41,002 nt of DNA from an uncultured Chloroflexota bacterium (GCA_964631365.1 CAZVZW010000003.1:1-41002); one strand, 5' to 3'. Counted from the stretch's first letter, positions 8,938-32,447 are shown. Numbers and translations are program-made. Notes: a model not told the origin generated them from the letters alone.

Positions 8938-9885
8938 GTGGCCAAATACCTTGCATTGCGACTCCTGGCGGCCATACCAGTGCTGCTGGGAGTGCTAGTC
9001 ATCGTGTTTGTCCTGCTGCGCCTGATCCCGGGTGATCCGGTCGATATCATTTTTTCCGGCCGCGGCGCGGGCGCCTCAAGCGCGCGCACGACCGGTGATG
9101 CAGTGGAGCGGTTGCGGGAGGCCTATCACCTGGATCGCTCGATCCCGGTGCAGTTCCTGTACTACCTGCGTGACGTCGTCACCGGCGATTTCGGCCGCTC
9201 CTTTCGTACCAACATCCAGGTCGGCGACCTGATCAAGGAACTCTTCCCACAGACCCTGCAACTGACCATGGCGGGGATGGGAGTGGCGCTTTTTGTCGGG
9301 ATCCTGGCCGGGGTGATCTCGGCGATCCGCCACCATACGTGGGTCGACTATGTGGGCCAGTTCGTGGCGGTCTTTGGCGTCTCCATCCCGGACTTCTTTT
9401 TCGGGCTGGTCATGATCTTCATCTTCAGCATATGGGCTGGCTGGCTCCCGGCGATCAGCGGTGACAAACCCATCGGCCTCATCATGCCCGCGATCACCCT
9501 GGGAGTTAGCTCGGCGGCCATCCTGGCCCGCCTAACGCGATCTTCGATGCTGGATGTGATGAGCCGGGATTTTATTCGCACCGCCCGCGCCAAGGGCCTC
9601 AAAGAGGGCAAGGTAGTTTGGCGCCATGCGTTTCAGAACGCCCTCATTCCGGTAATCACGATTGTGGGCCTGCAGTTCGGCAGCCTGCTAACCGGCGCGA
9701 TCGTCGTCGAGGTTGTGTTCACCCGGCAGGGCCTGGGATTCGAACTTGTGAATGCGGTGGTCACACGCAACTACCCGGTGGTGCAGGCGCTGGTAATGAT
9801 GGCATCGCTCGTGTACGTGGTCATGAATATTCTCGTCGATACCCTCTACACCTACGTCGATCCGCGCGTGCGGATTCAAACGTAG
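8938..9885 (+). CDS. ABC transporter permease (DppB/OppB-like)
   Basis: ORF 8938..9885 with GTG start. Conserved loop IRTARAKGLKEGKVVWRHAFQNAL. Confidence 0.9.
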   Translation: MAKYLALRLLAAIPVLLGVLVIVFVLLRLIPGDPVDIIFSGRGAGASSARTTGDAVERLREAYHLDRSIPVQFLYYLRDVVTGDFGRSFRTNIQVGDLIKELFPQTLQLTMAGMGVALFVGILAGVISAIRHHTWVDYVGQFVAVFGVSIPDFFFGLVMIFIFSIWAGWLPAISGDKPIGLIMPAITLGVSSAAILARLTRSSMLDVMSRDFIRTARAKGLKEGKVVWRHAFQNALIPVITIVGLQFGSLLTGAIVVEVVFTRQGLGFELVNAVVTRNYPVVQALVMMASLVYVVMNILVDTLYTYVDPRVRIQT

Positions 9886-9907: not shown

Positions 9908-10888
9908 ATGATACTGGGACTTTCGCAGGCGTCGTATCGCTGGGTCGCCTACCCGGGGCTGCGCATCGATCAGCCGGAGTACGGCTTTCGCGGCATGCCC
10001 TTCCCCTACGGCAGCACTACCGGGGGCCTGCGCGAGTTTGACGACAACATCGGCTGGTGGCTGGATCGCTGCGCCGAGTGGGACCTGGAAGTTCTGTACC
10101 TGGCTATGAGCTGGTTCAAGGACGAGGCGGCGGTGGTGGCGAACGCCCGGGAGATGGCCCGGCGCGGGATCGATTGGATCGGCTCGGTGAGCGGGGCCTG
10201 GGCGGTGCCGGAGGAAGAGTGGCCGGAATGCCGGGCAGAGGCGCGCCGGAAACTGGAGTTGGCGGCGGCGGCGGGAATGAAGACGACCGTGATCGTGAAC
10301 GCCGACCCGCCGGGCGCCGAGGGCCAGCCGGTGCCGAACGGCGGGCTGCGCTTCGGGCACTTCAGCCGCGAGATCGCGATCGACCAGCAAATTGAGAACA
10401 TGATCCGCAACCTGGGCGAGTTCGTGGCGGTGGCCGAGGAATGCGGAGTGCGGCTGGCCTACGAAAATCACATGGACTACCGGATCAGCGAATTGGTGGA
10501 GGTGGTGGAGGGGGTGGACTCGCCGTGGCTGGGTATCTGCTACGACTTCGCCAACAGCTATTCGGTGGTGGAAGACCAGCTGCAGGCGGCGCACCGGGCG
10601 GCGCCCTACACGCTGGTGACCCACGTGAAGGACATGCGGGTGCAGTCGATCACCACCACCGGCGAGCCGCGCTTTTTCCTGACCCCGATCGGGTACGGCG
10701 ACGTGGAGGTGGCAGAGATATTTGAGGTCCTGCAACAGGGGGCACCGGACGCGGACAACCTGCCCAATTGCGCGTCGCCGCCGTGCCTGCCGGAGTTCGA
10801 TCCGCAACTCTGGATGAAGTTGAGCGTGGAGTGGCTGGGGGCGAACTGCGCGGGGTACTTCCCGAGACGTTTTCAAACGGCGGCGTGA
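9908..10888 (+). CDS. Xylose-isomerase-like TIM-barrel protein (sugar phosphate isomerase/epimerase family), paralogue A1
   Basis: ORF 9908..10888. Motif order AYENH ... YDFAN ... THVKD. At the position where A2, A3 and A4 have C-x-E, it has C-A-S (Ser codon 10775-10777). Confidence 0.8.
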   Translation: MILGLSQASYRWVAYPGLRIDQPEYGFRGMPFPYGSTTGGLREFDDNIGWWLDRCAEWDLEVLYLAMSWFKDEAAVVANAREMARRGIDWIGSVSGAWAVPEEEWPECRAEARRKLELAAAAGMKTTVIVNADPPGAEGQPVPNGGLRFGHFSREIAIDQQIENMIRNLGEFVAVAEECGVRLAYENHMDYRISELVEVVEGVDSPWLGICYDFANSYSVVEDQLQAAHRAAPYTLVTHVKDMRVQSITTTGEPRFFLTPIGYGDVEVAEIFEVLQQGAPDADNLPNCASPPCLPEFDPQLWMKLSVEWLGANCAGYFPRRFQTAA

Positions 10889-10913
10889 TGCACACCAACT
10901 GGAGCGGCAAGAA

Positions 10914-11900
10914 ATGAGACTGGGACTGTCACAAGCGGCGTACCGCTGGGTATCCTACCCGGGCCTGCGGATCGACCAGCCGGAGTACGGGTTTCGCGGC
11001 ATGGCTCATCCGTACGGCACGGTGACCGATGGCCCGGTGAGCATGGACGAGGCGCCGGTGGAGTGGTGGGCGGATCGCTGCGACGAGTGGCACCTGGATT
11101 CGCTGTACATGGCGACCTCCTGGTTTACGACCGAGGCGCAGTACAAGGCAGCGGCAACGACGCTGGCGGACCGGAATATCGAATGGATCGGCTCCCTGGG
11201 GATGGCCTGGGCGCTGGAGCCAGACGAGTGGCCGGCGATCCTGGACGACGCCACCTTCGCGCTGGAGCAGATGCAGGGCGTGGGCGTGACGATGACGGCG
11301 ATGGTCAACACTGATCCGCCGGGGGCCGAGGGGCAGCCGGTGCCGAACGGCGGGTTGCGCTTCGGACACTTCAGCCGGGAGATCCCGATGGCCCGGCAGA
11401 TCGAAAACCTGACCCGCAACCTGTCCGAACTGGTGAAGGTGGCGGAGAAGACGGGGATCGTACTGGCCTTCGAAAACCACATGGACTACCGCATCAGCGA
11501 GATCGTGCAGGTGGTGGAGGCCGTCGACTCGCCGTGGCTGCGGATCAACTACGACTTCGCCAATTGCTACTCGGTGGTGGAAGACCAGGTGGAGGCGGCG
11601 CACCTTGCGGCGCCCTACACGGTGATGTCGCACATCAAGGACATGCGGGTGCAGTCGATCACCACCACCGGCGAGCCGAAGTTTTTCCACGCGCCGCTGG
11701 GCTACGGCAACGTGGAGATACCGGAGATCCTGGAGATCCTGCAGCAGGGCTCGCCGGAGCCGGATTCGATTTCGCACTGCATCGAGACCTGCTGCCTGCC
11801 CGAGTACGACCCGCAGCTGTGGATGAAGCTGAGCATCGAGTTCCTGGAGACCGAATGCGCGCAGTATTTCAAATCGCGTCCGCCCGTGAACGCTTCGTGA
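10914..11900 (+). CDS. Xylose-isomerase-like TIM-barrel protein, paralogue A2
   Basis: ORF 10914..11900. Roughly two-thirds identical to A1 by eye. Motifs AFENH ... YDFAN ... SHIKD ... CIE (Glu codon 11784-11786). Confidence 0.8.
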   Translation: MRLGLSQAAYRWVSYPGLRIDQPEYGFRGMAHPYGTVTDGPVSMDEAPVEWWADRCDEWHLDSLYMATSWFTTEAQYKAAATTLADRNIEWIGSLGMAWALEPDEWPAILDDATFALEQMQGVGVTMTAMVNTDPPGAEGQPVPNGGLRFGHFSREIPMARQIENLTRNLSELVKVAEKTGIVLAFENHMDYRISEIVQVVEAVDSPWLRINYDFANCYSVVEDQVEAAHLAAPYTVMSHIKDMRVQSITTTGEPKFFHAPLGYGNVEIPEILEILQQGSPEPDSISHCIETCCLPEYDPQLWMKLSIEFLETECAQYFKSRPPVNAS

Positions 11901-12940
11901 ACCCGGAATCGAGTGTCGCCGTGCTAACTCCGGACGCCCCGTTGGAGGCGATCGGCCCGGGTGGGCCGGGACGCTTCAAGGTGCTGATCACCGGGGTGTT
12001 CCTGCCGCACACCGAAATGGAAATCGCGGCGCTGGCGGACATCGCCGACGTGGTCGTCAATCGGGAGCCGAGGCGAGATGAGTTGCTGGCGCTGGTGGCG
12101 GATGTGGACGCGCTGATGGTGGATATCTCGCCGGTGGACGCCGAGTTGCTGGAACACGCGCCGCGGCTGAAGGCGGTGGTCATGTACGGGGTGGGGACGG
12201 ACCACATCGACGGCGTGGCGGCGGCGGCGCGCGGCGTAGTGGTGTCGAATACACCGGAGGCGTTTTCGACCGACGTGGCCGAGCACGCGATGGCGTTGCT
12301 GCTGGCGCTTTCGCGCGGGGTCGGCAAGGCCAACGCCGAGATACGTACGCGACGCGAGTGGGACCCCTACGGCGCGGGCCACGCACCGGTGCGGTTGCAC
12401 GGCAAGACGCTGGGGTTGATCGGGATCGGGCGGATCGGCCGCGAGACCGCGCGGATCGCGGCCGGGCTCGGCATGCGGCTCCTGGCCTATGACCCCTATG
12501 TTGATCGAGCCGGGTTCCGGCGGCTGCCGGGAGTGGCGATGGAGTTCTGCGACGACCTGGCGGCGCTGCTGGCCGAGGCCGACGCCGTTAGCCTGCACGT
12601 GCCGCTGACGGAGGAGACGCGGCGGCTGATCGGGAAGCCGGAACTGGAAGCGATGAAGCCGGGGGCGTTCCTGGTGAACGTCTCGCGGGGCGCGCTGATC
12701 GATCTGCCGGCGCTGCGGGAAGCCCTGGAAGGCGGCCGGCTGGGCGGGGCGGGGCTGGATGTGTTTGTGCCCGAGCCGCCCGACTGGGACGACCCGCTGT
12801 TGGTGGCGCCGAACCTGGTGCTGACGCCGCACATGGGCTGGCGGTCGGACCTGTCGGAATTGGAAGTCGAGATGGGGGCAGTGGCGGAAGTCCGGCGGAT
12901 CTTGCTGGGTGAGGGGCCGAAGTTCCGGGTGAACGGATGA
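11897..12940 (+). CDS. D-isomer-specific 2-hydroxyacid dehydrogenase (phosphoglycerate-dehydrogenase-like)
   Basis: The real gene is the 3' part of ORF 11534..12940. GTG 11897 overlaps the upstream stop (GTGA); GTG 11921 is an alternative. NAD site GLIGIGRIGRE; motifs NVSRG, LDVF.PEP, TPHMGW. Confidence 0.8.
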   Translation: MNPESSVAVLTPDAPLEAIGPGGPGRFKVLITGVFLPHTEMEIAALADIADVVVNREPRRDELLALVADVDALMVDISPVDAELLEHAPRLKAVVMYGVGTDHIDGVAAAARGVVVSNTPEAFSTDVAEHAMALLLALSRGVGKANAEIRTRREWDPYGAGHAPVRLHGKTLGLIGIGRIGRETARIAAGLGMRLLAYDPYVDRAGFRRLPGVAMEFCDDLAALLAEADAVSLHVPLTEETRRLIGKPELEAMKPGAFLVNVSRGALIDLPALREALEGGRLGGAGLDVFVPEPPDWDDPLLVAPNLVLTPHMGWRSDLSELEVEMGAVAEVRRILLGEGPKFRVNG

Positions 12941-15042
12941 GCGGCGGGGTGCGCATCGGCATCGACACCGGTGGGACCTTCACCGACTTGGTGGTGATGG
13001 ACGAGGCGACCGGCGAGGTGGTGGTGGTGAAACGGCCCTCGACGCCGGGCGATCCGAGCGAGGCGATCCTGGACGCGCTGCTGCGCTCGGAGGTGCGGCC
13101 GGAGGCGATCGAGACGCTGGTGCTGGGGACGACGGTGGCGGTAAACGCGCTGCTGCAACGCACCGGGGCGCGGGTGATCTACGTGGCGACCGACGGGCTG
13201 CAGGATGTGCCGTTCCTGCAACGGGTGAGCCGCAAGTTCCACTACGACCTTTCCTGGGAGCGCCCGCTGCCGCTGGTGCGCCGCAACGATTGCCTGGGGG
13301 TGGTGGAGCGGGTGGATTACCTGGGTCGGGTGGTGGATCCGCTGGAGCCGGCGGCGCTGGAAAAGCTGAGTGCGGACCTGCGGGAGCGGCTGGCGGAAGA
13401 CCCGGACGCGGACGTGACGGTGGCGGTGAACTTCCTGTTCTCGTACGTGCGACCGGAGCACGAGCGGATTGTGCGCGATTACCTGTCGGCGGAGTTCCCG
13501 GACCTGCTGGTGTCGGTGTCCAACGAGGTGGCGCCGATCTGGCGCGAGTACGAACGGGCCAGTACCACGCTGGCGGATGCCTACGTGCGGCCGCTGGTGG
13601 CGCGGTTCGTGGCGCGGATGCAGGATAAGTTGCGCGACTTCGGCTTCGCGAAGCCCTGGGCGCTGATGAAGTCGAACGGCGGACAGCTGCTGGCCGAGGC
13701 GGCGGCGCAACGCCCGGTGCACACCCTGCTGTCGGGGCTGTCGGGCGGGGTGATCGCCGGTCAGCACTACGGCGAGCTACTGGGCGACCGGGACGTGATC
13801 ACCTTCGATATGGGCGGCACCAGCGCGGATGTGGGGGTGGTGGCGGACGGGCATATCGGTTACACGACCGAGTGGGAACTGGAGTTCAGCCTGCCGGTGT
13901 CGGCGCCGTTTATCGAGATGACGACGATGGGGGCCGGCGGCGGCTCGATCGCCTGGATCGACAAGGGCGGGTTCTTGAAGGTGGGGCCGCAGAGCGCCGG
14001 TGCGGAGCCCGGTCCGGCCTGCTACGGGCTGGGCGGGACCGAGCCGACGATCACCGACGCGAACGTGGTGTTGGGACGGCTGAACGCGGAGAACTTCCTG
14101 GGCGGGGAGATGAAGCTCGACGCCGGGCGGGCGCAGGACGCGGTGGCGGGGATCGCGCAGCGGCTGGGAATCGCGCCGGAGCGGGCGGCGCAGGCGATCA
14201 TTGAAGTGGCCAACGAGAACGTGGCCGAGGCGATGCGGCAGTTGACGGTGCGACGCGGGCTGGACCCGCGCGATTTCACGCTGGTGGCGTTCGGCGGGGC
14301 GGGTCCGTTGCACGCCGCCGCGATTGCGCGAGCGGTGGGGGCGCGGCGGGTGATAGTGCCGCCGCACCCGGGGCTCAGCTCGGCGTTCGGCACGCTGCTG
14401 GCGGACATGCGAGTGGACAAGACCTGGACCCACATCGTGCGCTCGGACGGGATCGACGCACCGGCGATCGACACCCGGATGGCGGAACTGGAGGAGGAGG
14501 CGGTGGCGGAACTGCGCGAGGAGGGCTTCGGCGGCGAGCCGGCGGTGCGGCACTCGAGCAACATGCGCTACCTGGGGCAGAACTATGAGGAAGAGATCGA
14601 CATGCGGCCGGGCGAGATCGACGACGCGGCGATGGCGGCGCTGGTGGAGTCGTTTCACGCCCACCACGAGACTACTTACGGCTACCGGATCGCCGGCGAG
14701 GTGATCGAGATCGTGCGTTTCAACGTGACGGTGGGGGGCGCGGCGTCGCGGCCGACGCTGCCGAAGCTGGAAGTGGGGCCGGCGGCCGAGCCGCGGGCGT
14801 TCCGCGAGGTGATCTTCCCTGACACCGGGGTGGTGCGCTGCCCGATCTACGAGCGCGAGGACCTGCGCCCGGGCCAGGTGCTGGAGGGGCCGGCGGTGGC
14901 GGAGGAACTGGATTCGACGACGCTGCTGCATCCGGGCGACACGCTGACGGTGAGCGAGCGGGGGCTGGCGCTGATCGAGTTTGGCGAGGACGCCGCGATG
15001 GCGGCCACCGGGGCGACCTACGCGAAGGCGGGGTCCCGATGA
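12937..15042 (+). CDS. Hydantoinase/oxoprolinase family protein, A-type subunit (HyuA-like), copy 1
   Basis: ORF 12937..15042 with ATGA overlap to the upstream gene. N-terminus IGIDTGGTFTDLV and a length of about 700 aa are typical of N-methylhydantoinase A, 5-oxoprolinase and acetone carboxylase beta. Confidence 0.9.
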   Translation: MSGGVRIGIDTGGTFTDLVVMDEATGEVVVVKRPSTPGDPSEAILDALLRSEVRPEAIETLVLGTTVAVNALLQRTGARVIYVATDGLQDVPFLQRVSRKFHYDLSWERPLPLVRRNDCLGVVERVDYLGRVVDPLEPAALEKLSADLRERLAEDPDADVTVAVNFLFSYVRPEHERIVRDYLSAEFPDLLVSVSNEVAPIWREYERASTTLADAYVRPLVARFVARMQDKLRDFGFAKPWALMKSNGGQLLAEAAAQRPVHTLLSGLSGGVIAGQHYGELLGDRDVITFDMGGTSADVGVVADGHIGYTTEWELEFSLPVSAPFIEMTTMGAGGGSIAWIDKGGFLKVGPQSAGAEPGPACYGLGGTEPTITDANVVLGRLNAENFLGGEMKLDAGRAQDAVAGIAQRLGIAPERAAQAIIEVANENVAEAMRQLTVRRGLDPRDFTLVAFGGAGPLHAAAIARAVGARRVIVPPHPGLSSAFGTLLADMRVDKTWTHIVRSDGIDAPAIDTRMAELEEEAVAELREEGFGGEPAVRHSSNMRYLGQNYEEEIDMRPGEIDDAAMAALVESFHAHHETTYGYRIAGEVIEIVRFNVTVGGAASRPTLPKLEVGPAAEPRAFREVIFPDTGVVRCPIYEREDLRPGQVLEGPAVAEELDSTTLLHPGDTLTVSERGLALIEFGEDAAMAATGATYAKAGSR

Positions 15043-17138
15043 GCATGAAAACGGACTCCGCGGCGGTGGACCCGGTGACGCTGACGGTGGTGCACAACCG
15101 GCTGGTGGGAATCTGCCGGGAGATGGGCACGACGATGATCCGCACGGCCTATTCGCCGATCTTCAGCGAGAGTCGCGATTTCTCGTGCGTACTCTTCAAC
15201 GCCGACGGGGACATGCTGGCGCAGACCGAGTTCTGCCCGGCGCAGGTGGGGGCGATCCGGTTCGTGGTGAAGTGGCTGATCGCCGAGATCGGGGCGGAGA
15301 ACCTGAAGCCCGGCGACGTAGTGGTGCACAACGATCCGTATCGCGGCGGGGTGCACATGCCGGAACACGTGGTGATCAAGCCGGTCTACTACGACGACGA
15401 ACTTTTCGGCTATGTGGCCAACATCGCGCACCTGGTGGAGATTGGCGGGCAGGCGGTGGGAGGGTTCGCGGCGACGGCGACGGAGATCTACCAGGAAGGG
15501 CTGCGGGTGCCGCCGGTGTGGCTGATCCGCGAGGGTGAGTACAACCACGACGTATGGAAGATGATCATGGCCAATCACCGCGCGCCGCGAATCTCGTGGG
15601 GCGATCTGCACGCGATGGTGGCGTCGTTGACGGTGGCCGAGCGCCGCGTGCACGAACTCCTCGATGCCTATGGCGTGGAGCAAATCAAGACGATCAGCCA
15701 GCAACTGCTGGACCACGCGGAGCGCTGGATGCGCGAGGAGATTCTCGCGATCCCGGATGGCGTGTACCACTTCGAAGACTGCATGGAGGACGCCCGCGAG
15801 GAACCGGAGCGGGATTGGATTCGGCTGAAACTGGTGATCGAGGACGGGGACATCCTGGCGGACTTCAGCGCTAGTGACCCGCAGGCGGAGCATGTGCTGA
15901 ACGCCACGTATGGTGTCACGGCGTCGGGGGTCTACAACGCGGTGTTCCACCTGGCGGACAACGAGATCCCGCACAATGACGGCGCCTACCGGCCGATCAC
16001 GGTGATCGCAAAGCCGGGGATGATTACGAACGTGGTCCACCCGGGGGCCTGCGTGGGCGGGAACACGGAAACGCATCCGCGAATCTGGGGGATCACAATG
16101 GGGGCGCTGGCGCAGGCGGCGCCGGAGCGGGTGTCGGCCGATACTGGTTCGACAGCCTGTAATTTCCTGTTCGGCGGGGTCAATCCAGACAGCGGGCTGT
16201 ATTACGTGCACTACCACTTCGACGGGGTGGGGTGGGGCGGGCGGCACGACGCCGACGGCAACAGCCACCAGGTGATCCCGAACGGCAACACCCAGACCAC
16301 GCCAGTGGAGATTTTCGAGACGCGCTATCCGTTCCTGGAGCGGCACTACCGGCTGCGCACCGACTCCGGCGGACCTGGTCGGCACCGGGGCGGGCTGGGA
16401 TCGGACCGGATCCTGGAGGTGCGGGCGCCGGAGATCACGATGTCGGCGCTGTTCGATCGGATGGTGATGAAGCCCTGGGGCATTTTTGGCGGCGAGGGCG
16501 GTGACAACTCGGAATTGCTGATCAGGCTGGCCGGGAGCGATGAATTCGTTACGTTCCGGGAGGCCTACGGCACGCCGAGTAACTCGCGGGTTTCGAATAT
16601 CAAGCTGAAGCGCGGGGACCGGGTGCTGCTGCGGTCGTCGGGGGGCGGGGGCTACGGCAAGCCGGAGGAACGGCCGGTTGAGGCGGTGCTGGCGGATGTG
16701 CGCGAGGACTTCGTGTCGATCGAGGGCGCGCGGGACGATTACGGGGTGGCGATCGTGGCGACCGGCAAGGATCTTGCGGTTGACCACGGAGCGACGGCCC
16801 GGCTGCGCTCGCGGCCGCTGGCGGGAAGGGCGATCACGCCCGACCGGCGCGGCGCGGTGGCGGACGGCGGAGCGGCGGACGGCGGAGCGGCGGGCGGGGG
16901 CCTGCTGGCGGCGCTGCGTGAAGAAGACGGTGAGCCGGCCGGGCACTGGGAAACGCTGGAAGGCGACTGGTGGGACCCGGGGATCATCAACTGCGAGATG
17001 TGTGGTCAGATGATCCCGCGCGATGTCTGGGTGGCGGATGACGGGCTGCGGGTCTGCTCGCACCAGTGCGACCGTTTGTATCGTTCTTACGGCGGCCCGC
17101 GCCTCGCGACGACGGAGCGGGCCGGGGGAGAGAGATGA
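15039..17138 (+). CDS. Hydantoinase B/oxoprolinase family protein (HyuB-like), copy 1, with a C-terminal Gly/Ala linker and Cys4 zinc-ribbon (TRASH-like) extension
   Basis: ORF 15039..17138 with ATGA overlap. Core motifs [35 protein letters not shown]. The tail CEMCG-x17-CSHQC lies at 16992-17069. Confidence 0.9.
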
Positions 17139-18139
17139 TGGCCGAGGCGCAACGGCTGCTGGCGGTCGATGGACTGGAGGTGCAGTTCAGCACCGACGAG
17201 GGAATCGTGCGGGCGGTGAACGACATCTCGTATGCGCTGGAAGCCGGGGGGGCGTTGGGGATCGTGGGCGAGTCGGGCTGCGGGAAGAGCGTGAGTTCGC
17301 TGGCGGTGATGGGGCTGGTGCCGCAGCCGGTGGGCAAGATCGTGGCCGGGAGCGTGGAGTTCAAGGGCCAGGACCTGCTGGAGTTGAACCCGGGCGAGAT
17401 GCGGGAGATTCGGGGCGGCGACATCTCGATGATCTTCCAGGATCCGATGAGCTCGCTGAACCCGGTGCTGACGGTGGGCCATCAAATCCAGGAGTCGCTG
17501 CGGCTGCACCTTGGGATGGACAAGAAGGCCTCGGCGGCGCGGGCGGTGGAACTGTTGGACATGGTGGGGATCCCGTCGCCGGAAGACCGGGTGAAGGACT
17601 ACCCGCACCAGCTTTCCGGCGGGATGCAGCAACGGGTGATGATCGCGATGGCGATCTCGTGTCAGCCGAAGTTGCTGTTCGCGGACGAGCCTTCGACGGC
17701 GCTGGACGTGACGATCGAGGCCCAGGTGATCGAGTTGCTGGGGCGGCTGCGCAAAGAACTGGGGATGGCGGTGGTGCTGATCACCCACGACCTGGCGGTG
17801 GTGGCGGGGTTCTGCGAGGAGGTGGTGGTGATGTATGCGGGGTACATCGTGGAGCAGACGTCGGTCGGTGAGATCTTTCACAACCCGCGGCACCCGTACA
17901 CGATCGGGCTGCTGGGCTCGATGCCGGGGACGGATACGGAAACCGGTCGGGGAAACCGGCTGAACGCGATTCAGGGGGCGCCGCCGGACCTGACGGCGCT
18001 GCCGGACGGGTGCCCGTTCGCGCCGCGTTGCGCGTTCGTGCAGGATCGCTGCCGGACCGAATTGCCAGAGCTTGAGGAATCGCCGCCCGGTCACGCGATT
18101 CGTTGCTTCGTTGACGTGGAGACGGGAGAGGCGCGATGA
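17135..18139 (+). CDS. ABC transporter ATP-binding protein (DppD/OppD-like)
   Basis: The real start is ATG 17135 inside ORF 17066..18139, overlapping the HyuB stop (ATGA). Walker A GESGCGKS, signature LSGGMQQR, Walker [13 protein letters not shown]. Confidence 0.9.
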
Positions 18140-19185
18140 GCCGGGAGACGCCGACGAACGACGGGCAGCCGATCCTCGAGGTGAAGGGGCTGACCAAGCA
18201 CTTCCCGGTGGTTCGGGGGGCGATCTTCAGGCGTGAGGTCGGCAGCGTGAAGGCGGTGGACGGGATCAGCTTCAGCATCCAGCCGAACGAGACGCTGGGG
18301 CTGGTGGGGGAGTCGGGCTGCGGGAAGACGACCACCGGCAACACGGTGCTGCAACTGGAGAAGCCGACTTCCGGAGAGGTCATCTTCGAGGGCCGCAACC
18401 TGGTGGAACTGCCGATCGCGGAGCAGCGCCGGGCGCGCCGCCGGATGCAGATGATCTTCCAGGACCCGTTCGGGTCGCTGAATCCGCGGATGCCGGTGGG
18501 CAAGATTATCGAGGAGCCGCTGGGCGTGCATGGGATCGGTGACAGCCGTCAGGAACGCCGCGACCGGGTGGCCGAATTGCTAAGACTCGTGGGGTTGAGT
18601 CCGAACCATGCGGTTCGCTACCCCCACGAATTCTCCGGCGGCCAGCGCCAGCGCATTGCTCTCGCGCGGGCGCTGGCCGTTCAGCCCAGCTTCATCGTCT
18701 GCGACGAGCCGGTGTCGGCGCTGGACGTGTCGATCCAGGCGCAAATTATCAACCTGTTCCTGGACCTGCAGGAGCAGCTGGCGGTGGCCTACCTGTTCAT
18801 TTCCCACGATCTGAAGGTCGTGCGGCAAATCAGCGACCGGATCGCGGTGATGTACCTGGGCAAGATCGTGGAACTGGCGCCCAGCACGGAGCTGTATTCG
18901 CGGCCGCTGCACCCGTACTCGCGGGCGCTGCTGTCGGCGGTGCCGCTGCCCGATCCCGATCTTGAGGCGAACCGCGAGCGGATCATTCTGACCGGCGATG
19001 TGCCCAGCCCGGTGGACCCGCCGTCGGGCTGCCGGTTCCACCCGCGGTGCCCGTGGGCGGTGGAGCGCTGTGGGGTGGAGGACCCGCCGGAACGGGAAGT
19101 GTCCACCGGCCATTTCGTTGCCTGTCACCTGGCGGAGGAGATCGAGGTGGGAGGCGGGGCGCTGCCCGGAGCGAACGGTGCATGA
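18136..19185 (+). CDS. ABC transporter ATP-binding protein (DppF/OppF-like)
   Basis: ORF 18136..19185 with ATGA overlap. Walker A GESGCGKT, signature FSGGQRQR, Walker [13 protein letters not shown]. Confidence 0.9.
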
Positions 19186-19212
19186 GGGCGGGCCGCACCC
19201 GGGCAGGGTAGG

Positions 19213-20382
19213 GTGAAGATTAGGTCGGTGGAGGCGCACGTTGCCTCGGACGGGCTGCGCAATGCGACGTACGTGACGGTGACGACGGAGTCGGGGATGG
19301 TGGGGCTGGGGGAGGCGTACACGGCGGGGCCCGACCTGGCGGTGGCGGAGACGGTGCGCTACCTGGGAGATTGGCTGGTGGGGCAGGATGCTTCGCGGCG
19401 GGAGCGGCTGTGGGCGGAGTGTTACCGGGGCCTGCGCTTCCCGGCGGGGGCGGTGGGCTGGGCGGCGATAAGCGGGATCGACCTGGCACTGTGGGATCTG
19501 GCCGGGAAGGCGGCCGATCTGCCGGTGTACGAGCTGCTGGGCGGGGTCTACCGGGAGCGCATCTGGGTGTACCTGGACATCGTCACCGGCGAGCCGGAGT
19601 TCATGGCGGAGCAGGCGCGGGCCGGGCACGAGCAAGAGGGCTTCACGGCGTTCAAGGTGTTCCCCTACGCGACTGAGGACGACGTGTTGCCGTGGCGGAC
19701 GATCTGCGACCTGGTGGTGGCGCGGGTGGCGGCGGTGCGGGCGGCGGTGGGCGAGGAGGCGGATATCGGGGTGGACTTCCACTCCAAGCTCGAGGAGCCG
19801 GCGCGGGCGGCGGAACTGGCGCGGCGGCTGGAGCCGTTTCGCCCGATGTTTATCGAGGAACCCATCCGCCCGGGGAGCCACGCGGTGATGGCGGAGACGC
19901 GGCGGCGCTTCACGATCCCGCTGGCGACGGGCGAGAGCCTGTACGGCAAGCATGAGTTCCTGGACCTGATCGACGCCGGAGCGGTGGACCTGCTGCAGCC
20001 GGACCTGCTGCTGTGCGGCGGGCTGACGGAACTGCGCAAGATCGCGGCGGTGGCCGAGGCGCACATGATCTCGCTGATCCCGCACAACCCGTTTGGCCCG
20101 CTGACGACGGTGATGACGGCGCATTTCGCGGCGGCGACGCCCAACTTCACCCTGATGGAACTGCCGCAGGCCGGGCTGCCGGGGAGTCGCGAGGCGGATG
20201 CGCAGGCGCTGCGGCGGAGCTTTGTGGAGGTGGACACGACGGTCAGCGACGGCCACCTGGCGCTCCCGGAGGGACCGGGGTGGGGCGCGCGGGTGAATCT
20301 TGATGAGATCGCACGACATCCTTATCAGCCCTGGCGGCGGCCGGTCCCGGAAAAGGCCGACGGCGGCTTCGGCTTCTACTAG
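19213..20382 (+). CDS. Enolase-superfamily acid-sugar dehydratase, copy 2
   Basis: ORF 19213..20382 with GTG start. Motifs VDFHSK ... IEEP ... TGES ... QPD ... PHNP. Strongly G-ending codons (Ala GCG, Leu CTG). Confidence 0.85.
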   Translation: MKIRSVEAHVASDGLRNATYVTVTTESGMVGLGEAYTAGPDLAVAETVRYLGDWLVGQDASRRERLWAECYRGLRFPAGAVGWAAISGIDLALWDLAGKAADLPVYELLGGVYRERIWVYLDIVTGEPEFMAEQARAGHEQEGFTAFKVFPYATEDDVLPWRTICDLVVARVAAVRAAVGEEADIGVDFHSKLEEPARAAELARRLEPFRPMFIEEPIRPGSHAVMAETRRRFTIPLATGESLYGKHEFLDLIDAGAVDLLQPDLLLCGGLTELRKIAAVAEAHMISLIPHNPFGPLTTVMTAHFAAATPNFTLMELPQAGLPGSREADAQALRRSFVEVDTTVSDGHLALPEGPGWGARVNLDEIARHPYQPWRRPVPEKADGGFGFY

Positions 20383-20393
20383 GAGGCAGGATC

Positions 20394-21371
20394 ATGAGTT
20401 GGGAACCACGGTTTTCGGTCGGTCTCTACCATCACTTCGGGCCGCATTTTGTGGACCAGCCGTCGAACGACGAAATCGACGCGGCGTTCGTGAGCCTGGA
20501 CCGGGTGCCGGACGTGGCCGGGGTGGAGTTCTTCGCCAACACGACGGTGACGCCACGAAACGCGGCGCACATCCGCCGGCGGCTGGACGAGCGGGGGCTG
20601 GAATGCTCGATGCTGCATCACGGGGAGCCCTATGTGCGCGGGGTGATGACGGATGCGGCGCTGACGTCGCCGGCATTGCCGGACCGGCAGACGGCAGTCG
20701 ATATGTGTCTGCGGGCGGTGGAGGTGGCGCAGGCGCTGGACGCCATGGGCATCTATGTCTTCACGCCAATGGACGGGGCGGACTATCCGTTCCAGCAGGA
20801 TTTCGCGGCCGCGCGGCGTTACACCATCGATGCGTTGCACGAAATCTGTGAGGCTGCCGGCAACCTGAAGGTGGCGCTGGAGTTTCGGCCCTATGCACCG
20901 CGCGGCTGGGCGAACGTGGGCTCGGTGAGCAAGGCGCTGGAGCTGGTGCTGGCGGTGGACCGGCCGAACCTGGGTATCCAACTCGAGGTCAGCCACACGC
21001 TGATGAGCCTCGAAAATCTGGCGCAGTCGACCTGGGAGGCGGCCCACCGCGGCCTGCTTTATCACGTGCACCTGAACGACACCCAGCTGCCGCAGGACCT
21101 GTCGACGATCTTCGGCAGCCAGCATTTCTGGGAGTGCCTGGAGATGATGTACTGGCTGCAGGAGACGGAGTATCCGCACTACCTGGGGCTGGACGTGGTT
21201 TGGACCCGCGAGGACGGCGCCGGCAGCGGCAGGCAGTTCATCCGCAATACTCAGTACATGCTGCGGGTGCTGGACGCGATCGACCGGCCGGTGCTGGCGG
21301 AGGCGATGGCGCGGAACGACGTCCTTGCGACCCAGGACCTGCTGTGGACGGCACTGCGGGAGACCTCCTGA
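20394..21371 (+). CDS. Xylose-isomerase-type TIM-barrel sugar isomerase (short form)
   Basis: ORF 20394..21371 with SD AGGAGG. EFRPYAPRG, QLEVSHTLM and HVHLND resemble the EPKPNEPRG, E.GH and HIDLN motifs of class-I xylose isomerases, but the protein is only 325 aa. Confidence 0.7.
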   Translation: MSWEPRFSVGLYHHFGPHFVDQPSNDEIDAAFVSLDRVPDVAGVEFFANTTVTPRNAAHIRRRLDERGLECSMLHHGEPYVRGVMTDAALTSPALPDRQTAVDMCLRAVEVAQALDAMGIYVFTPMDGADYPFQQDFAAARRYTIDALHEICEAAGNLKVALEFRPYAPRGWANVGSVSKALELVLAVDRPNLGIQLEVSHTLMSLENLAQSTWEAAHRGLLYHVHLNDTQLPQDLSTIFGSQHFWECLEMMYWLQETEYPHYLGLDVVWTREDGAGSGRQFIRNTQYMLRVLDAIDRPVLAEAMARNDVLATQDLLWTALRETS

Positions 21372-21419
21372 GGTGCGGCTCTGCGTGACGGCGGGTCCGC
21401 GCGAGATGGTGGCGGTGCG

Positions 21420-22361
21420 ATGAAGCTGGGGATGTCGCAGGCGTGCTACCGGTGGGTGTTCTACCCGCAGATGCGCCGCGACCGCCCGGAACACAAGTCG
21501 CTGGGGCGGCCGTCGCCGTACCTGCAGACGGTGGCCGGGCCGGGAGTGGGGGAGAGCCCGCGGGATTGGCTGATCGAGCGGACCGCCGGGCACGGGTTCG
21601 AGTCGCTGTATATGAGCTCGGGGTACCTAGGGGACGATGAGGATGTGGCGGTGTTTCGCGACGGGATGGCGGCGCGCGGCCTGGAACTGATCGGCGGGTT
21701 GGGTCTGACGGTGGCGGCGGAGGCGGACGAGTGGGACGGGCAATTCGAGCGCTGCGTGAGCGATATTCGCACGATGGCGCGGGCCGGGGCCAGGTTCGTG
21801 GCGGCGGTGAATGACAAGCCGGACAGCCTGAACCACTTCACCCGCGATCCGTCGATCGATGAACAGATCGAGCGGGCGATCGCGAACTTCAAATCACTGC
21901 TGCCGGTGTGCGAAGAGGTGGGGCTGCGACTGGCGTTCGAGAATCACCTGGACTACCGGATTTCGGAAGTTGTGCAGGTCGTGGAGGGGGTCGATTCGCC
22001 CCGGCTGGGGATCAACTTCGATACCGGCAACCCGGTGGCGGTGATCGAGGACCCGCTGGTGGCGGCGCGGGCGGCGGCGCCGTATGCGATCAACGCCCAC
22101 CTGAAGGATTTCCGCATCCAACCGGCGACCAGCACCGGCGAGCCACGCATCTTCTGGACGCCGCTGGGGCGGGGCGACGCGCCGATCGCGGAGATGGTGG
22201 CGATCCTGGCGAAGGAGGCCCCCGACGCGACGACGCTGTCGGCGTGCGTGGAGGTGGCGCCGCCGCCGGAGCACGACCCGGCGGTGTGGGTGCAGGCGAG
22301 CGTGGACTGGCTGCGCGAAAACTGTGCGGAGCACTTCCCGGGCATCGACGGTGGGCCATGA
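21420..22361 (+). CDS. Xylose-isomerase-like TIM-barrel protein, paralogue A3
   Basis: ORF 21420..22361. Same N-terminal signature as the others (MKLGMSQACYRWVFYP). Motifs AFENH ... NFDTGN ... AHLKD ... CVE. Confidence 0.8.
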   Translation: MKLGMSQACYRWVFYPQMRRDRPEHKSLGRPSPYLQTVAGPGVGESPRDWLIERTAGHGFESLYMSSGYLGDDEDVAVFRDGMAARGLELIGGLGLTVAAEADEWDGQFERCVSDIRTMARAGARFVAAVNDKPDSLNHFTRDPSIDEQIERAIANFKSLLPVCEEVGLRLAFENHLDYRISEVVQVVEGVDSPRLGINFDTGNPVAVIEDPLVAARAAAPYAINAHLKDFRIQPATSTGEPRIFWTPLGRGDAPIAEMVAILAKEAPDATTLSACVEVAPPPEHDPAVWVQASVDWLRENCAEHFPGIDGGP

Positions 22362-23356
22362 GGTTGGGGCTCTCGCAGGCGACCTACCGCTGGGTCTGCT
22401 ACCCGTGGCTGCGTTTTGACGTGCCGGAATTCCGCTACTCGGAGCGGCGACTGCCATACTTCATGTCGGTCGATCCGCCCGAGACCGGGGGGGCGCCGGT
22501 GGACTGGCTGGTGGACCGGGTGCTCGAGCACGATCTGACCTCGCTGTACATGGAGGCGGGCTGGCTGGCGGAGGGGAAGGCGGCGGGGTTCAAGCAGCGG
22601 ATGGAAGCCGGCGGACTGGCGTTTATCGGGTCGTCTTCGGCCAACCTGGCCGCCACCGCCGAGGAATGGGGCGACACCACCTATCCGTTGCCGGACGCGG
22701 CGCGGGAGCGACTCAGCTACCGGCCGACCGTTGGCGATCACGGCTGGGCCGGCGGCAGCCAGTTTGCGGTGTTGGTGCGGGCGCTGGAACTGGCGGCGGA
22801 GGGCGGGGCGAAGATCATCAACGTGGTCCACGACTACCCGGAGCGCCACAACCATTTCACCCAGGACCCACCGGTCGAGCGGCAGATCGAGCGGATGATC
22901 CGCAACTTCCGCTCGCTGGTTCCGGTGGCCGAAAAGCTGGGAATCGTGATGGCGACCGAGTCGCACATGGATTACCGCTGCGCGGAACTGCTGGCGGTGA
23001 TGGAGGCGGTGGACTCGCCGTGGCTGCGGCACTGCTTTGACTTCGCGAACCCGATAACGGTCATCGAGGACCCGCTGGACGCGGTCAAGCTGGTCGCGCC
23101 CTACACGGTGGTGACGCACATCAAGGACATGCACGCGCGGCCGATGACGAGCCTGGGGGAGCCGCGGTTCTTTCACGCCCCGATCGGGTACGGCGATGTG
23201 CCGGTGGCGGCGATCCTGGAGGTGCTGCAGTCGGAAGCGCCGGACCCGGACAACCTGGAGCACTGCCTGGAGATCGTCCCGACCTCGGAATATGACCCGG
23301 AGGCGTGGTTGGCGGCCAGCCTGGAATGGCTGCGGACGGAATGCGCGAAGTTTTAG
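22358..23356 (+). CDS. Xylose-isomerase-like TIM-barrel protein, paralogue A4
   Basis: The real start is ATG 22358 inside ORF 21908..23356, with ATGA overlap to A3. N-terminus MRLGLSQATYRWVCYP. Motifs ATESH ... CFDFAN ... THIKD ... CLE. Confidence 0.8.
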   Translation: MRLGLSQATYRWVCYPWLRFDVPEFRYSERRLPYFMSVDPPETGGAPVDWLVDRVLEHDLTSLYMEAGWLAEGKAAGFKQRMEAGGLAFIGSSSANLAATAEEWGDTTYPLPDAARERLSYRPTVGDHGWAGGSQFAVLVRALELAAEGGAKIINVVHDYPERHNHFTQDPPVERQIERMIRNFRSLVPVAEKLGIVMATESHMDYRCAELLAVMEAVDSPWLRHCFDFANPITVIEDPLDAVKLVAPYTVVTHIKDMHARPMTSLGEPRFFHAPIGYGDVPVAAILEVLQSEAPDPDNLEHCLEIVPTSEYDPEAWLAASLEWLRTECAKF

Positions 23357-23390: not shown

Positions 23391-24212
23391 ATGGGTACGG
23401 ATCGAACGCGGGCGGTGATCAGCCCCCGGGTGAACCCGGTGACGCGGGCGCTGAGGGCGGGGAAGGTGGTGCTGGGCTCGTGCAGCATCGCGTTCGGCAG
23501 CGTGCCGACGGCGCAAATCTTCGCGGCGGCCGGGTTCAGTTTCAACTACTTCGACCTGGAGCACAGCCAGACGAGTCTGGAGGATCTGGCGGCGATGTGC
23601 GCGGTGTCGAAACTGGCCGGCGCGGTGCCGATCGTAGGCCCGTCGAGTATCGGCGATCACCTGATCGGGCGGCCGCTGGATGCCGGGGCGATGGGGGTGA
23701 TCGTGCCGCATGTGTCGACGGCGGAGGAGACGAGACGAGTGGTGCAGTACTCGCGCTACGCGCCGGTAGGTATCCGCGGGCTGGTGTCACCGGGAATCCT
23801 GACCGAGTTTGAGTCGCCGGATGGCTCAGACTGGGTCGAGTCCCAGAACCGCGAGATCCTGGTGGCGGTGAAGGTGGAGAGCGGAACGGGGATTGACAAC
23901 ATTGAGGAAATCGCCGCGGTGCCGGGCCTGGACGCGATCCTGATCGGCACCGGGGACCTCTCGGCAACGCTGGGGATACCGGGGCAAACCGGGCACGCCG
24001 ACGTGGTCGATTGCATCGAGCGGATGCTGGCGACGGCCAACAAGAACGGCGTGGCCGGCGGGCCGCACGTAGGCAGCGCGGCGGACGCCGCGCACTGGGC
24101 GGACCGGGGTGCGCGGTTCATGAGCGTGAGCTTTGACGCGGCGATGTTGCTGGAGGTGGCGGCCGGGGCGGTCAGCGATGCCCGCGCGCGCCTCGGCGAC
24201 CGGATGCTGTGA
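23391..24212 (+). CDS. HpcH/HpaI family 2-keto-3-deoxy-acid aldolase
   Basis: ATG 23391 inside ORF 23196..24212, with SD GGAGAG. Motifs FDLEHS, VIVPHVSTAEE, VKVESGTGIDNIEEIAAVPGLDAILIGTGDLS. Confidence 0.8.
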   Translation: MGTDRTRAVISPRVNPVTRALRAGKVVLGSCSIAFGSVPTAQIFAAAGFSFNYFDLEHSQTSLEDLAAMCAVSKLAGAVPIVGPSSIGDHLIGRPLDAGAMGVIVPHVSTAEETRRVVQYSRYAPVGIRGLVSPGILTEFESPDGSDWVESQNREILVAVKVESGTGIDNIEEIAAVPGLDAILIGTGDLSATLGIPGQTGHADVVDCIERMLATANKNGVAGGPHVGSAADAAHWADRGARFMSVSFDAAMLLEVAAGAVSDARARLGDRML

Positions 24213-24240: not shown

Positions 24241-25011
24241 TTGAATAATCGCCTTGAACTGACCATTACCGAACTCGACGGCGGTTCGGCACCGGTATCG
24301 GTTGACGTTGGGGCGGTGCGCGGGGCGGGGCTCTGCGTGCGCGATCGCGCGGCGGCGGGGCGGGAGCAGGAACGGCGGCGCGCGGCCGGCGAGCCGTGGC
24401 ATTCGAGCGATCTCTTCACCTACCGGATCGGCCGCCACTTGGCGACGACCGACGCCAGCATCGAGGTGCAGGGGCCGCTGACCGGCGGCGAGGCGGAAGT
24501 GGTGGTGATCTTCGTCGGGGAAGAGGTTCTGATCGGAGTCGGCAGCGACCAGTGCGACCGGGAACTGGACGCGCTGTTCCTGGAGAAACCGAAGCAGCTC
24601 TGCCCGCACCCGCTGGGCCGCCGGGTCTGGCGCTATGCGGATGTGGAGGATCATTGGGATGAGCTGCGGGTTGAGGCCGAGGTTGAGATAGATGGGAAGG
24701 CCGTGGCGATCCAAAGCTTCGCGCTGGCGGAACTGGTGACCTTCGACACGCTGCTGGCGACTGACGCGCTGCGGGAGCGCCCGGACGGGACGGTGTTCTA
24801 TTGCGGGACCGGCGGGGCGCCGCCGGGGGCGGTGGCGGAGATCGCGCGGCTGGGGCTGCCGCCGGAGACGATTTCCGGGGTAGGCGAGGTGTTCCGGATG
24901 CGCCTGTACGACCCGGTGCGGGATCGCGAGTTGCGGCACGAGTACCGGGTAGAGGTGCTGGGGGATCACCTGGCGGATCGCCGCCTGGATGACGGGGAAG
25001 ACGCGCGATGA
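24241..25011 (+). CDS. DUF2848-like protein of unknown function
   Basis: 3' part of ORF 24133..25011. TTG 24241 is the only in-frame start after the upstream stop, and there is no clear SD. GSDQCDRELD...KPKQLCPHP and the overall layout match my recollection of DUF2848 (GSDHTDRE...SKQ.C.KP). Confidence 0.55.
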   Translation: MNNRLELTITELDGGSAPVSVDVGAVRGAGLCVRDRAAAGREQERRRAAGEPWHSSDLFTYRIGRHLATTDASIEVQGPLTGGEAEVVVIFVGEEVLIGVGSDQCDRELDALFLEKPKQLCPHPLGRRVWRYADVEDHWDELRVEAEVEIDGKAVAIQSFALAELVTFDTLLATDALRERPDGTVFYCGTGGAPPGAVAEIARLGLPPETISGVGEVFRMRLYDPVRDRELRHEYRVEVLGDHLADRRLDDGEDAR

Positions 25012-26162: not shown

Positions 26163-26169
26163 GCGCGAC

Positions 26170-31742: not shown

Positions 31743-32408
31743 ATGCCCAACGACCAACTCCCCGAAGACTTCCGGCAGCGGTTCATGGCGCTGCATACGG
31801 CGCTGTTTTGCGACAGCATGGATCGCATGGGCCTGGATCCGCAGGTGATGGATCACCGGATCCGCCCGATGTACCCCGGGGCGGTGATCGTGGGGCGGGC
31901 GCTGCCGGTCCTGTGGGCGCCAGTGTACCGGTCGCCGGAGCATCCCTACGAGCATCTTTTTGAGGCCTATCGGGCGCTGGAGGAGGATGATGTCTTCGTG
32001 ATGACGACCAGCGGGTTCGCCACCGCCGGAGTGTGGGGCGGGCTGCTGGCCACGGCGGCCCGGGCGCAGGGGGCCGTCGGCACGATTATCGACGGGCTGA
32101 CCCGGGACGTGGATGAGATCGAGGAGATCGAGTTCCCGGTGTTCGCGCTGGGGCGGTCGGCGAAGGACTCGGAGGGCCGCGCGGAGGCGATTGAGTTCGG
32201 CACGCCGATCGAGTGTGGCGGAGCGCTGGTGAATCGCGGCGACATCGTGTTTGCCGACGACATGGGCGGGATCGTGATCCCGGCGGCGGCGGCGGCGGAG
32301 GTGCTGGAGCGGGCCGAGGAGAAGAACCGCGGGGAATCAGACGTCCGCAAGATCCTGGCGGCCGGTCGGGACGTCGGCGAGGTGTTTCGCGAGTACGGGA
32401 TTCTGTAG
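31743..32408 (+). CDS. RraA family protein (4-hydroxy-4-methyl-2-oxoglutarate aldolase / oxaloacetate decarboxylase-like)
   Basis: ORF 31743..32408 with SD GGAGGA. Motifs FCDSMDRMG, VWGGLLATAARAQGAVGTIIDGLTRDVDEI, VFADDMGGIVIP. Confidence 0.8.
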   Translation: MPNDQLPEDFRQRFMALHTALFCDSMDRMGLDPQVMDHRIRPMYPGAVIVGRALPVLWAPVYRSPEHPYEHLFEAYRALEEDDVFVMTTSGFATAGVWGGLLATAARAQGAVGTIIDGLTRDVDEIEEIEFPVFALGRSAKDSEGRAEAIEFGTPIECGGALVNRGDIVFADDMGGIVIPAAAAAEVLERAEEKNRGESDVRKILAAGRDVGEVFREYGIL

Positions 32409-32447
32409 GTCAGCGGCGCGGCCGGACCGGCCGGAAGGGGGCGGGCA

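Follow-up and report, generated by a model that had tools for sequence, protein, structure and literature searches.

Four xylose-isomerase-like paralogues in an uncultured Chloroflexota operon comprise an ancient overlapping gene couple and a recent tandem duplication

The window analysed here is a 41,002-nucleotide stretch of DNA from an uncultured marine Chloroflexota bacterium (GCA_964631365.1 CAZVZW010000003.1:1-41002). One operon on its plus strand carries four genes, A1 to A4, that encode enzymes of the xylose-isomerase-like family PF01261, which adopt a triosephosphate isomerase (TIM) barrel fold. The genes form two adjacent pairs, A1/A2 and A3/A4, and a preliminary description of the sequence suggested that these may be two heteromeric enzymes or act in successive steps on related intermediates. 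What kind of unit is each pair, and which reactions could its members catalyse? The four genes are listed below, with the lineages U, D and S as defined in the next section.

9908..10888, plus strand: A1, S-lineage PF01261 paralogue, upstream copy of a genus-specific tandem; strand-8 Glu ligand replaced by Ser (CAS versus CxE)
10914..11900, plus strand: A2, S-lineage PF01261 paralogue, downstream tandem copy; canonical E-D-H-E ligand set (predicted)
21420..22361, plus strand: A3, U-lineage PF01261 enzyme, upstream partner of a conserved couple; putative ligands E174, D201, H227 and E278
22358..23356, plus strand: A4, downstream partner of A3, a PF01261 enzyme of lineage D whose start shares 4 nt with the end of A3; residues 105-134 are a lineage-specific insert in which GWxG is invariant

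Three lineages of one rare subfamily

All four open reading frames are present and contain no internal stops. Their scores against PF01261 are 82.7, 72.2, 84.2 and 82.3 bits for A1 to A4, respectively, above the gathering threshold of 31.1. The four-way alignment comprises 85 invariant columns, including the N-terminal MxLGxSQAxYRW, the ENHMDYR core, VDSP, (V/I)ED, APY, HxKD, GEP and DPxxW. The four genes are thus paralogues of one xylose-isomerase-like subfamily with common N-terminal, core and C-terminal motifs, as the preliminary description held. Pairwise identities are 63% for A1/A2, 44% for A1/A3, 45% for A1/A4 and 42% for A3/A4. The spacings given in that description were also recovered: the A3 stop and the A4 start share 4 nucleotides (nt; ATGA), and 25 nt separate A1 from A2, which is preceded by a Shine-Dalgarno-like GGAG. 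The loop DPPGAEGQPVPNGGLRFGHFSREI, already noticed as peculiar to A1/A2, is restricted to these two proteins and kept throughout their clade. Overlooked were an insert of about 27 residues specific to A4 (A4 105-134, including the invariant GWxG) and a further PF01261 gene, XI5, upstream of A3.

A1 to A4 belong to a rare, uncharacterised PF01261 subfamily. A profile search of 1.84 billion representatives returned 45 clusters (50% identity) at E <1e-30, of which only about 20 match from residue 1; a 90%-identity collection yielded 74 clusters, whose most specific name is 'sugar phosphate isomerase/epimerase'. The subfamily occurs in 27 of 401 Chloroflexota genomes and 5 of 218 genera, all but one in the order of the window. 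Sporadic copies outside Chloroflexota were found in Latescibacterota, Poribacteria, Lentisphaeria and one Firmicutes assembly (loci L044, L046, L053-L061 and L073); these share habitats with the Chloroflexota members, namely sponges, deep ocean and groundwater. No match to an NCBIfam equivalog came near its cut-off, the maximum being 37 bits against 200-317. Two assignments were rejected: IolE (TIGR04379), with a best, partial score of 24.9 bits against an equivalog cut-off of 290, and the L-ribulose-5-phosphate 3-epimerase UlaE/SgbU (NF009688, NF009689, TIGR00542), with at best 37.2 bits over about 115 residues. A tblastn search of a plasmid collection with A3 returned only distant 'sugar phosphate isomerase' matches of 27-36% identity, none of them characterised. 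The signature had seemed unassignable at the outset, and these low scores and generic names bear this out; the contrary case, membership in a characterised orthologous group, did not emerge from profile and structure searches.

A maximum likelihood tree of 127 distinct full-length members from 102 loci contains three well-defined lineages. Lineage U, which contains A3, comprises 43 members (Shimodaira-Hasegawa-like approximate likelihood ratio test, SH-aLRT, 99), 42 of which occupy the upstream place in a pair of adjacent genes. Lineage D, which contains A4, comprises 44 members (SH-aLRT 100), and 42 of them are the downstream member of a pair. A1 and A2 fall in lineage S (31 members, SH-aLRT 99), where the gene is single in 25 cases. 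The labels cluster on the tree, with 7 changes against a mean of 59.8 in shuffles. Of the three members of U and D that stand unpaired, one has a shortened partner (L019), one lies at a contig start (L050) and one has a split partner (L094). Locus by locus, the subtree of U mirrors that of D.

Tandem S genes are confined to the genus of the window, and the single S gene of other genera is 68-69% identical to A2 and 63-64% to A1. Since the pairs fall into these lineages, the tandem is limited to one genus and S is single elsewhere, A1/A2 is a young local duplication and A3/A4 an old couple. A1/A2 arose by a recent genus-specific tandem duplication of a gene that is otherwise usually single and adjoins a Gfo/Idh/MocA oxidoreductase, and A3/A4 is an ancient gene couple, co-inherited and translationally coupled. 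The proposal that the two pairs are equivalent heteromer candidates is thereby revised. In another species of the genus (L003/L025), three S genes were observed in a row, one of A1 type, one of A2 type and a second A2-type copy cut by the contig end; the S tandem array is thus still growing inside the genus. Gene conversion between A1 and A2 was considered and gave no clear signal: a 42-nt identical tract lies within the generally conserved GEP region, and the third-position identity of the two genes, which are 72% identical overall at the nucleotide level, tracks amino-acid conservation. Ratios of non-synonymous to synonymous substitution rates (dN/dS) are 0.03-0.16 across the four genes, as under purifying selection, and none of them looks like a dead copy. 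For A1 the ratio is 0.07-0.16, and its non-synonymous rate is two to three times that of A2.

We consider it fairly probable that U and D form an obligate two-enzyme unit that takes keto-sugar or inosose intermediates through two successive enolisation-type reactions, with S catalysing a separate step and A1/A2 being recent duplicates of it. The same family history could be read differently, the four proteins being independent substrate-specific isomerases, epimerases or dehydratases for four related compounds and their adjacency a matter of duplication history only. The youth of the A1/A2 tandem, restricted to one genus, and the species with three S copies in a row fit such a reading, as do the related genomes, in which 2-7 subfamily copies are spread over several loci with differing neighbours. 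Expansion of paralogues for substrate breadth has a counterpart in the enolase-superfamily enzymes proposed in SAR202 bacteria, whose genomes are known to run paralogue-based pathways in parallel (PMC10444878). The SAR202 papers, including this one, do not mention xylose-isomerase-like proteins, Gfo or oxoprolinase. Duplication history alone, however, does not explain why U and D are adjacent in 42 of 42 cases in a constant order, with mirrored subtrees and an overlap that was kept while the two lineages diverged to 42% identity, and we regard four independent enzymes as unlikely.

Coupling of U and D and their predicted active sites

The striking feature of this subfamily is the strictly conserved, overlapping U-D couple rather than the four-fold count of paralogues in the window. 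In all 42 intact cases, U is directly followed by D. In 40 of these pairs, the last 4 nt of U are also the first of D (ATGA, GTGA or TTGA), including loci whose U or D is only about 40% identical to the protein of the window. The D gene is never in the frame of the U gene, the start offsets being 929-944 nt and none of them divisible by 3. The pairing of A3 with A4 as a unit, suggested from the window alone, is supported by this invariable adjacency, order and overlap. A Latescibacterota locus (L054) carries the whole U-D couple, 4-nt overlap included, which suggests horizontal transfer of U-D as a unit.

The distance matrices of U and D correlate with r = 0.969 over 30 loci, the highest value among the gene pairs tested. 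The partial correlation of U with D given the family-5 solute-binding protein (SBP5) of the neighbouring transporter is 0.73. For comparison, the interacting permeases OppB and OppC reach 0.83 when conditioned on U, and OppB reaches only 0.21-0.24 with U or D. This covariation of rates in the sequences supports a co-evolution of U and D that exceeds their shared history, and it is no proof of contact.

AlphaFold2 models of A3 and A4 were obtained with mean predicted local distance difference test (pLDDT) scores of 95.7 and 91.3, respectively. Both comprise eight alternating strands and helices arranged as a TIM barrel, and all top Foldseek matches are PF01261 structures with a probability of 1.00, in agreement with a (beta/alpha)8 fold. 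Against the PDB, the best match of both models is 'isomerase Art22' (8z1i, 9koj), with E about 1e-12, a template modelling (TM) score of 0.66-0.80 and 16-20% identity. Further matches include D-tagatose and D-psicose 3-epimerases, IolI, UlaE, SCO6571, AsbF, YcjR (3-keto-D-glucoside 4-epimerase), IolE and DgpC. Profile searches against the PDB, using profiles of 4 and of 59 sequences, agree with Foldseek and reach significance only for Art22 (E 4e-14), which is thus the best match by sequence too, and for uncharacterised barrels. To our knowledge, all these structural neighbours use a metal-stabilised enediolate adjacent to a carbonyl.

In the A3 model, E174, D201, H227 and E278 lie at the ends of strands 5, 6, 7 and 8, respectively, and have equivalents in A2 and A4. 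Their spacing presumably corresponds to that of the Glu-Asp-His-Glu metal site of ketose 3-epimerases. Across U, D and S, conservation is at least 0.95 for the first three ligands, the E, H and D of ENHxD, the strand-6 D, the ED pair and the H and D of HxKD. The strand-8 position differs between lineages:

Lineage U: Glu in 43 of 43
Lineage S: Glu in 28 of 31; Ser in three A1 orthologues
Lineage D: Glu in 21 of 44, Lys in 23 of 44

A4 of the window retains the strand-8 Glu. In A1 the position is Ser290 (10775-10777), within a C-A-S motif shared with the orthologues of two other species; the rest of lineage S has C-x-E. It appears from the models that A1 lost one metal-ligand and catalytic Glu, as assigned by topology, after the duplication and then evolved faster; the A1/A2 tandem shows incipient asymmetry. 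The Lys variants of lineage D (L018:9063-10046 and 22 others, such as L023, L065, L071 and L079) form one subclade that sits in loci of the type GFO_b-OppC-SBP5-OppB-U-D, GFO_b being a Gfo/Idh/MocA oxidoreductase. Their upstream partner always has Glu. On the tree, the change from Glu to Lys looks like a single evolutionary event. The D-specific insert of about 27 residues follows strand 3 on the catalytic face and is modelled as a short helix and a hairpin around the invariant GWxG, and an S-specific insert, DPPGxxGQPxPNGGLRFGHFS, follows strand 4 on the same face.

Ketose 3-epimerases and UlaE have an E-D-H-E metal site in which the two Glu act as opposing bases. The D-tagatose and D-psicose enzymes and UlaE share the fold of U, D and S and provide many of the top fold matches, but at only 12-17% identity. 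Because A1 and half of lineage D are predicted to lack the second Glu, this two-Glu mechanism would be impossible for them.

The coupling and the strand-8 variation raise the possibility that U and D are subunits of one obligate hetero-oligomer that arose from a homo-oligomeric ancestor, neither being active or stable alone. We give this slightly less than an even chance. The persistence of the 4-nt overlap in 40 of 42 pairs despite deep divergence favours equimolar co-translation, U and D are never found separated or in another order, and their rates covary as strongly as those of OppB and OppC, permeases that interact physically. Lys in 23 of 44 D proteins facing an invariant Glu in U, and Ser in A1 next to Glu in A2, is the kind of asymmetry typical of paralogous heteromers; by extension, A1/A2 may repeat the same route, with A1 as the ligand-deficient partner of A2. 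Conversely, nearly all catalytic residues are kept in both partners, each of which has its own active-site insert, so that each can be an enzyme by itself, and the top matches listed from large searches include no U-D fusion protein. Sugar isomerases of this fold other than DgpC are reported to form no heterocomplexes (PMC8563793).

Genomic setting and candidate substrates

The two-step unit proposed for U and D is embedded in a transporter and dehydrogenase operon. The window genome is a 2.05-Mb assembly, 78% complete, and the related genomes belong to uncultured Chloroflexota recovered in metagenomes of sponges and the deep sea. Besides A1 to A4, the window contains the following genes.

3379..4506, minus strand: GFO_a, an oxidoreductase of the Gfo/Idh/MocA family transcribed divergently; in other genera, the single S gene has the GFO_a orthologue as its immediate divergent neighbour
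4499..5341, minus strand: IclR-family regulator, divergent from the operon
5934..6854, plus strand: OppC-like permease, importer component
6970..8886, plus strand: SBP5, importer component
8938..9885, plus strand: OppB-like permease, importer component
11897..12940, plus strand: D-2-hydroxyacid dehydrogenase, conserved downstream neighbour of the S gene
12937..15042, plus strand: HyuA, subunit of an ATP-dependent hydantoinase/oxoprolinase-type enzyme
15039..17138, plus strand: HyuB, subunit of an ATP-dependent hydantoinase/oxoprolinase-type enzyme
17066..19185, plus strand: OppD and OppF, ATPases of an ATP-binding cassette (ABC) transporter
19213..20382, plus strand: enolase-superfamily (MR/MLE) enzyme 1
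20394..21371, plus strand: XI5, fifth PF01261 gene, of true xylose-isomerase type, directly upstream of A3; best PDB match 3ktc
23391..24212, plus strand: HpcH/HpaI aldolase (likely ATG start)
Ends at 25011, plus strand: DUF2848 gene, between the HpcH aldolase and enolase-superfamily enzyme 2
25008..26162, plus strand: enolase-superfamily enzyme 2
26029..27192, plus strand: Fe-ADH-like
27201..28250, plus strand: GFO_b, a Gfo/Idh/MocA oxidoreductase that may make or use the keto intermediate

On the plus strand, A1 and A2 follow the OppB-like permease and precede the D-2-hydroxyacid dehydrogenase, and A3 and A4 stand between XI5 and the HpcH aldolase. The likely GTG start of the D-2-hydroxyacid dehydrogenase at 11897 overlaps the A2 stop (GTGA), an alternative in-frame GTG being present at 11921; given this overlap, A2 and the dehydrogenase may be coupled in translation. 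XI5 was considered as a fifth member of the subfamily and rejected: the hhalign probability is 5%, and its kinship is with true xylose isomerases, PDB entry 3ktc ('xylose isomerase') matching at E 5e-22. XI5 and enolase-superfamily enzyme 1 precede U-D in 5 of 40 related loci. Among solved structures, those nearest to GFO_a and GFO_b include inositol dehydrogenases, scyllo-inositol/L-glucose dehydrogenase, which is among the closest to GFO_a, 1,5-anhydrofructose reductase and DgpA. The same search matched PDB entry 6a3f ('putative dehydrogenase'), which we take to be levoglucosan dehydrogenase.

We compared the surroundings of U-D at 40 loci, with 6-kb flanks, and those of S at 26 loci. An OppB-like permease stands beside U-D in 33 of the 40 loci and SBP5 in 31, and an orthologue of GFO_b adjoins the transporter and U-D module in 23. 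A Gfo/Idh/MocA-family gene lies beside S in 21 of the 26 loci, and in 10 S is followed by a D-2-hydroxyacid dehydrogenase and then HyuA/HyuB. PF01261-type enzymes are thus clustered here with a Gfo/Idh/MocA dehydrogenase and a transporter, as are LgdB1/LgdB2 and AL1/BT1, discussed below. In the commonest type of U-D locus (L018:4707-9010), the interval between D and OppF holds three genes, for a 629-residue BNR/sortilin-repeat protein, a 552-residue protein without Pfam match and a PhyH-family dioxygenase.

A class-III aminotransferase occurs in 13 of the 40 U-D loci and a flavin amine oxidase in 10. These genes bear on a further reading, in which the module processes sugar-amine conjugates of an Amadori, opine-like or aminocyclitol type. 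SBP5 would import the conjugate, HyuA/HyuB would open a lactam, oxidation by GFO and elimination by U/D would release the amine, and an amine oxidase or aminotransferase would process it. One type of U-D locus is indeed followed by both these enzymes (10-13 of 40 loci), HyuA/HyuB lies downstream of the S gene, and the opine binders AgaA and AccA are among the PDB matches of the family-5 binding protein. The best match of this protein is, however, uncharacterised, and binders of peptides and of nickel reach comparable scores. In Ti plasmids, the agropinic-acid operon pairs a transporter of this kind with hydantoinase-like lactamases, an analogy for which a literature search, dominated by beta-lactam papers, yielded nothing usable; plasmids of the Ti type gave only distant matches of 27-36% identity. 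The enolase, HpcH-aldolase and DUF2848 genes of the window rather indicate acid-sugar catabolism. An oxidise-then-eliminate route also cleaves the C-N bond of acarbose (bioRxiv 10.1101/2024.03.25.586180). On balance, we regard a sugar-amine module as improbable.

Two observations were made further downstream in the window. At 31743-38072, a second module with a hydantoinase pair joins an RraA-like gene to HyuA2, HyuB2 and a class-III aminotransferase; orthologues of this module in genus g7 lie directly upstream of GFO_a and a single S gene (as in L031 and L034), linking both modules. At 38797-40359, a protein of about 520 residues without any Pfam match is encoded, also present in L013, L017 and L021; it often occurs in 2-3 tandem copies beside the transporter of U-D loci with amine oxidase and aminotransferase.

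Proposed reactions and relation to known systems

A1 to A4 are probably cytoplasmic, metal-dependent xylose-isomerase-like TIM-barrel enzymes. In the two-step reading that we favour, a compound would be imported by the adjacent family-5 ABC transporter and oxidised to a ketone intermediate by an NAD-dependent Gfo/Idh/MocA dehydrogenase. Each protein would bind a divalent metal via Glu, Asp, His and Glu on strands 5, 6, 7 and 8, respectively, and the bound metal would stabilise an enediolate beside the carbonyl. U and D would catalyse two consecutive steps, either beta-elimination then hydration or isomerisation/epimerisation then dehydration, on a keto-sugar, inosose or keto-acid-sugar intermediate, and may act as one hetero-oligomer. 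S would catalyse an enolisation step of its own, linked to GFO_a and the D-2-hydroxyacid dehydrogenase.

Several observations weigh against this proposal. Enzymes of one pathway that do not interact can likewise show a constant gene order, a 4-nt overlap and covarying rates. The ligand assignment is provisional, being derived from the strand topology of the AlphaFold2 models and the spacing in ketose 3-epimerases. The nearest solved structures are at most 20% identical, and the reaction type is taken from the superfamily alone, the members themselves being uncharacterised. In the window, GFO_b sits 4 kb 3' of A4 and does not adjoin it. Finally, the enolase-superfamily enzymes, the HpcH aldolase, the hydantoinase pair and the amine oxidase and aminotransferase of relatives point to other substrates, which could be an acid sugar or a sugar-amine conjugate instead of a glycoside or cyclitol.

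The iol operon of Bacillus subtilis holds IolE, IolH and IolI, each of which catalyses a different enolisation-type step on inosose. Like the window, it thus combines several PF01261 paralogues with a Gfo/Idh/MocA dehydrogenase (IolG) and an aldolase in one operon, and IolI (1i60) and IolE (3cny) are among the fold matches. As this example illustrates, multiple PF01261 paralogues per operon are not in themselves unusual, contrary to the initial impression of an exceptional four-fold expansion. The iol paralogues differ from U and D in forming no fixed overlapping couple, and the IolE equivalog gives A1 to A4 no more than 25 bits.

In the levoglucosan pathway, LgdA, LgdB1, LgdB2 and LgdC carry out oxidation, elimination, hydration and reduction (PMC7676230). 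LgdB1 and LgdB2 of Bacillus smithii thus perform beta-elimination then hydration on a 3-keto sugar, and their genes can share a cluster beside an ABC transporter. A lyase route of broad specificity for 3-keto-glycosides, with the 3-keto-glucoside 1,2-lyases AL1/BT1, operates in gut Bacteroidota (bioRxiv 10.1101/2024.03.25.586180); its hydratase, unlike that of the route proposed here, is a DUF1080 protein. Like U and D, LgdB1/LgdB2 and AL1/BT1 are annotated as TIM-barrel 'sugar phosphate isomerase', and they act after a Gfo/Idh/MocA-type 3-dehydrogenase, as is proposed for U and D; none of the four is named among the top 50 fold matches of the A3 and A4 models. LgdB1 is metal-independent and LgdB2 Mn-dependent (PMC7676230), which recalls the Glu/Lys and Glu/Ser asymmetry of U/D and A1/A2. 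LgdB1 and LgdB2 are separate proteins, purified and assayed individually for consecutive steps, with no marked mutual sequence similarity (PMC7676230), whereas U and D are paralogues with 42% identity and a conserved 4-nt overlap.

DgpB-DgpC and CarB-CarC are heteromeric enzymes that act on a 3-oxo sugar made by a Gfo/Idh/MocA enzyme; their catalytic subunit is a Mn-binding PF01261-like barrel, and the two genes always adjoin (PMC8563793). The fold search with A4 lists DgpC at ranks 36-43. The partner subunit in these deglycosidases is a small beta-sandwich, DgpB being no paralogue of the TIM-barrel DgpC (PMC8563793), whereas both partners here are full-length barrels with their own predicted ligand sets and so depart from the deglycosidase arrangement. 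The precedents invoked in the preliminary description therefore hold in part: DgpB/DgpC is heteromeric but not paralogous, and LgdB1/LgdB2 are dissimilar and separately assayed (PMC8563793, PMC7676230). The literature on both systems provided no precedent for a heteromer of paralogues in this fold, so a U:D heteromer would be more novel if true and is less backed by analogy.

Art22, the best structural match, probably belongs to the aurantinin (art) cluster, judging by its name. It differs from A1 to A4 in its low identity (16-20%), in its shorter length of about 275-300 residues, and in lacking the MxLGxSQAxYRW extension loop and the lineage-specific inserts. The main product of the aurantinin cluster carries a 3'-keto sugar (PMC8302727). 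Literature searches for Art22 found no paper, the aurantinin paper (PMC8302727) mentioning only the 3'-keto sugar.

These comparisons allow a bolder version of the two-step unit, which we put forward tentatively and with some doubt. An unstable enone or keto intermediate would be channelled along an 'oxidise, eliminate, hydrate' route by a U/D hetero-oligomer with two non-equivalent active sites, one of which, in a sister genus, is the Lys variant that lacks the fourth ligand. By this route, Chloroflexota of the sea and of sponges would strip sugar-like moieties from glycosides or sugar-amine conjugates imported by the peptide/opine-type transporter, with A1/A2 as a young second instance.

Marine Chloroflexota and those associated with sponges, SAR202-like groups among them, are believed to break down unusual dissolved organics via expanded enzyme families, hardly any of whose enzymes has a known substrate. 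The subfamily described here offers a defined target, a coupled two-gene unit beside a dedicated importer and an NAD-dependent sugar/cyclitol dehydrogenase. If U and D are merely two consecutive enzymes, the result is a useful, ordinary annotation of a new pathway module. If they form a heteromer of paralogues, this would be a new quaternary arrangement for a well-studied fold, and the natural series from Glu to Lys to Ser at the fourth ligand would show a duplicated enzyme turning into an asymmetric complex.

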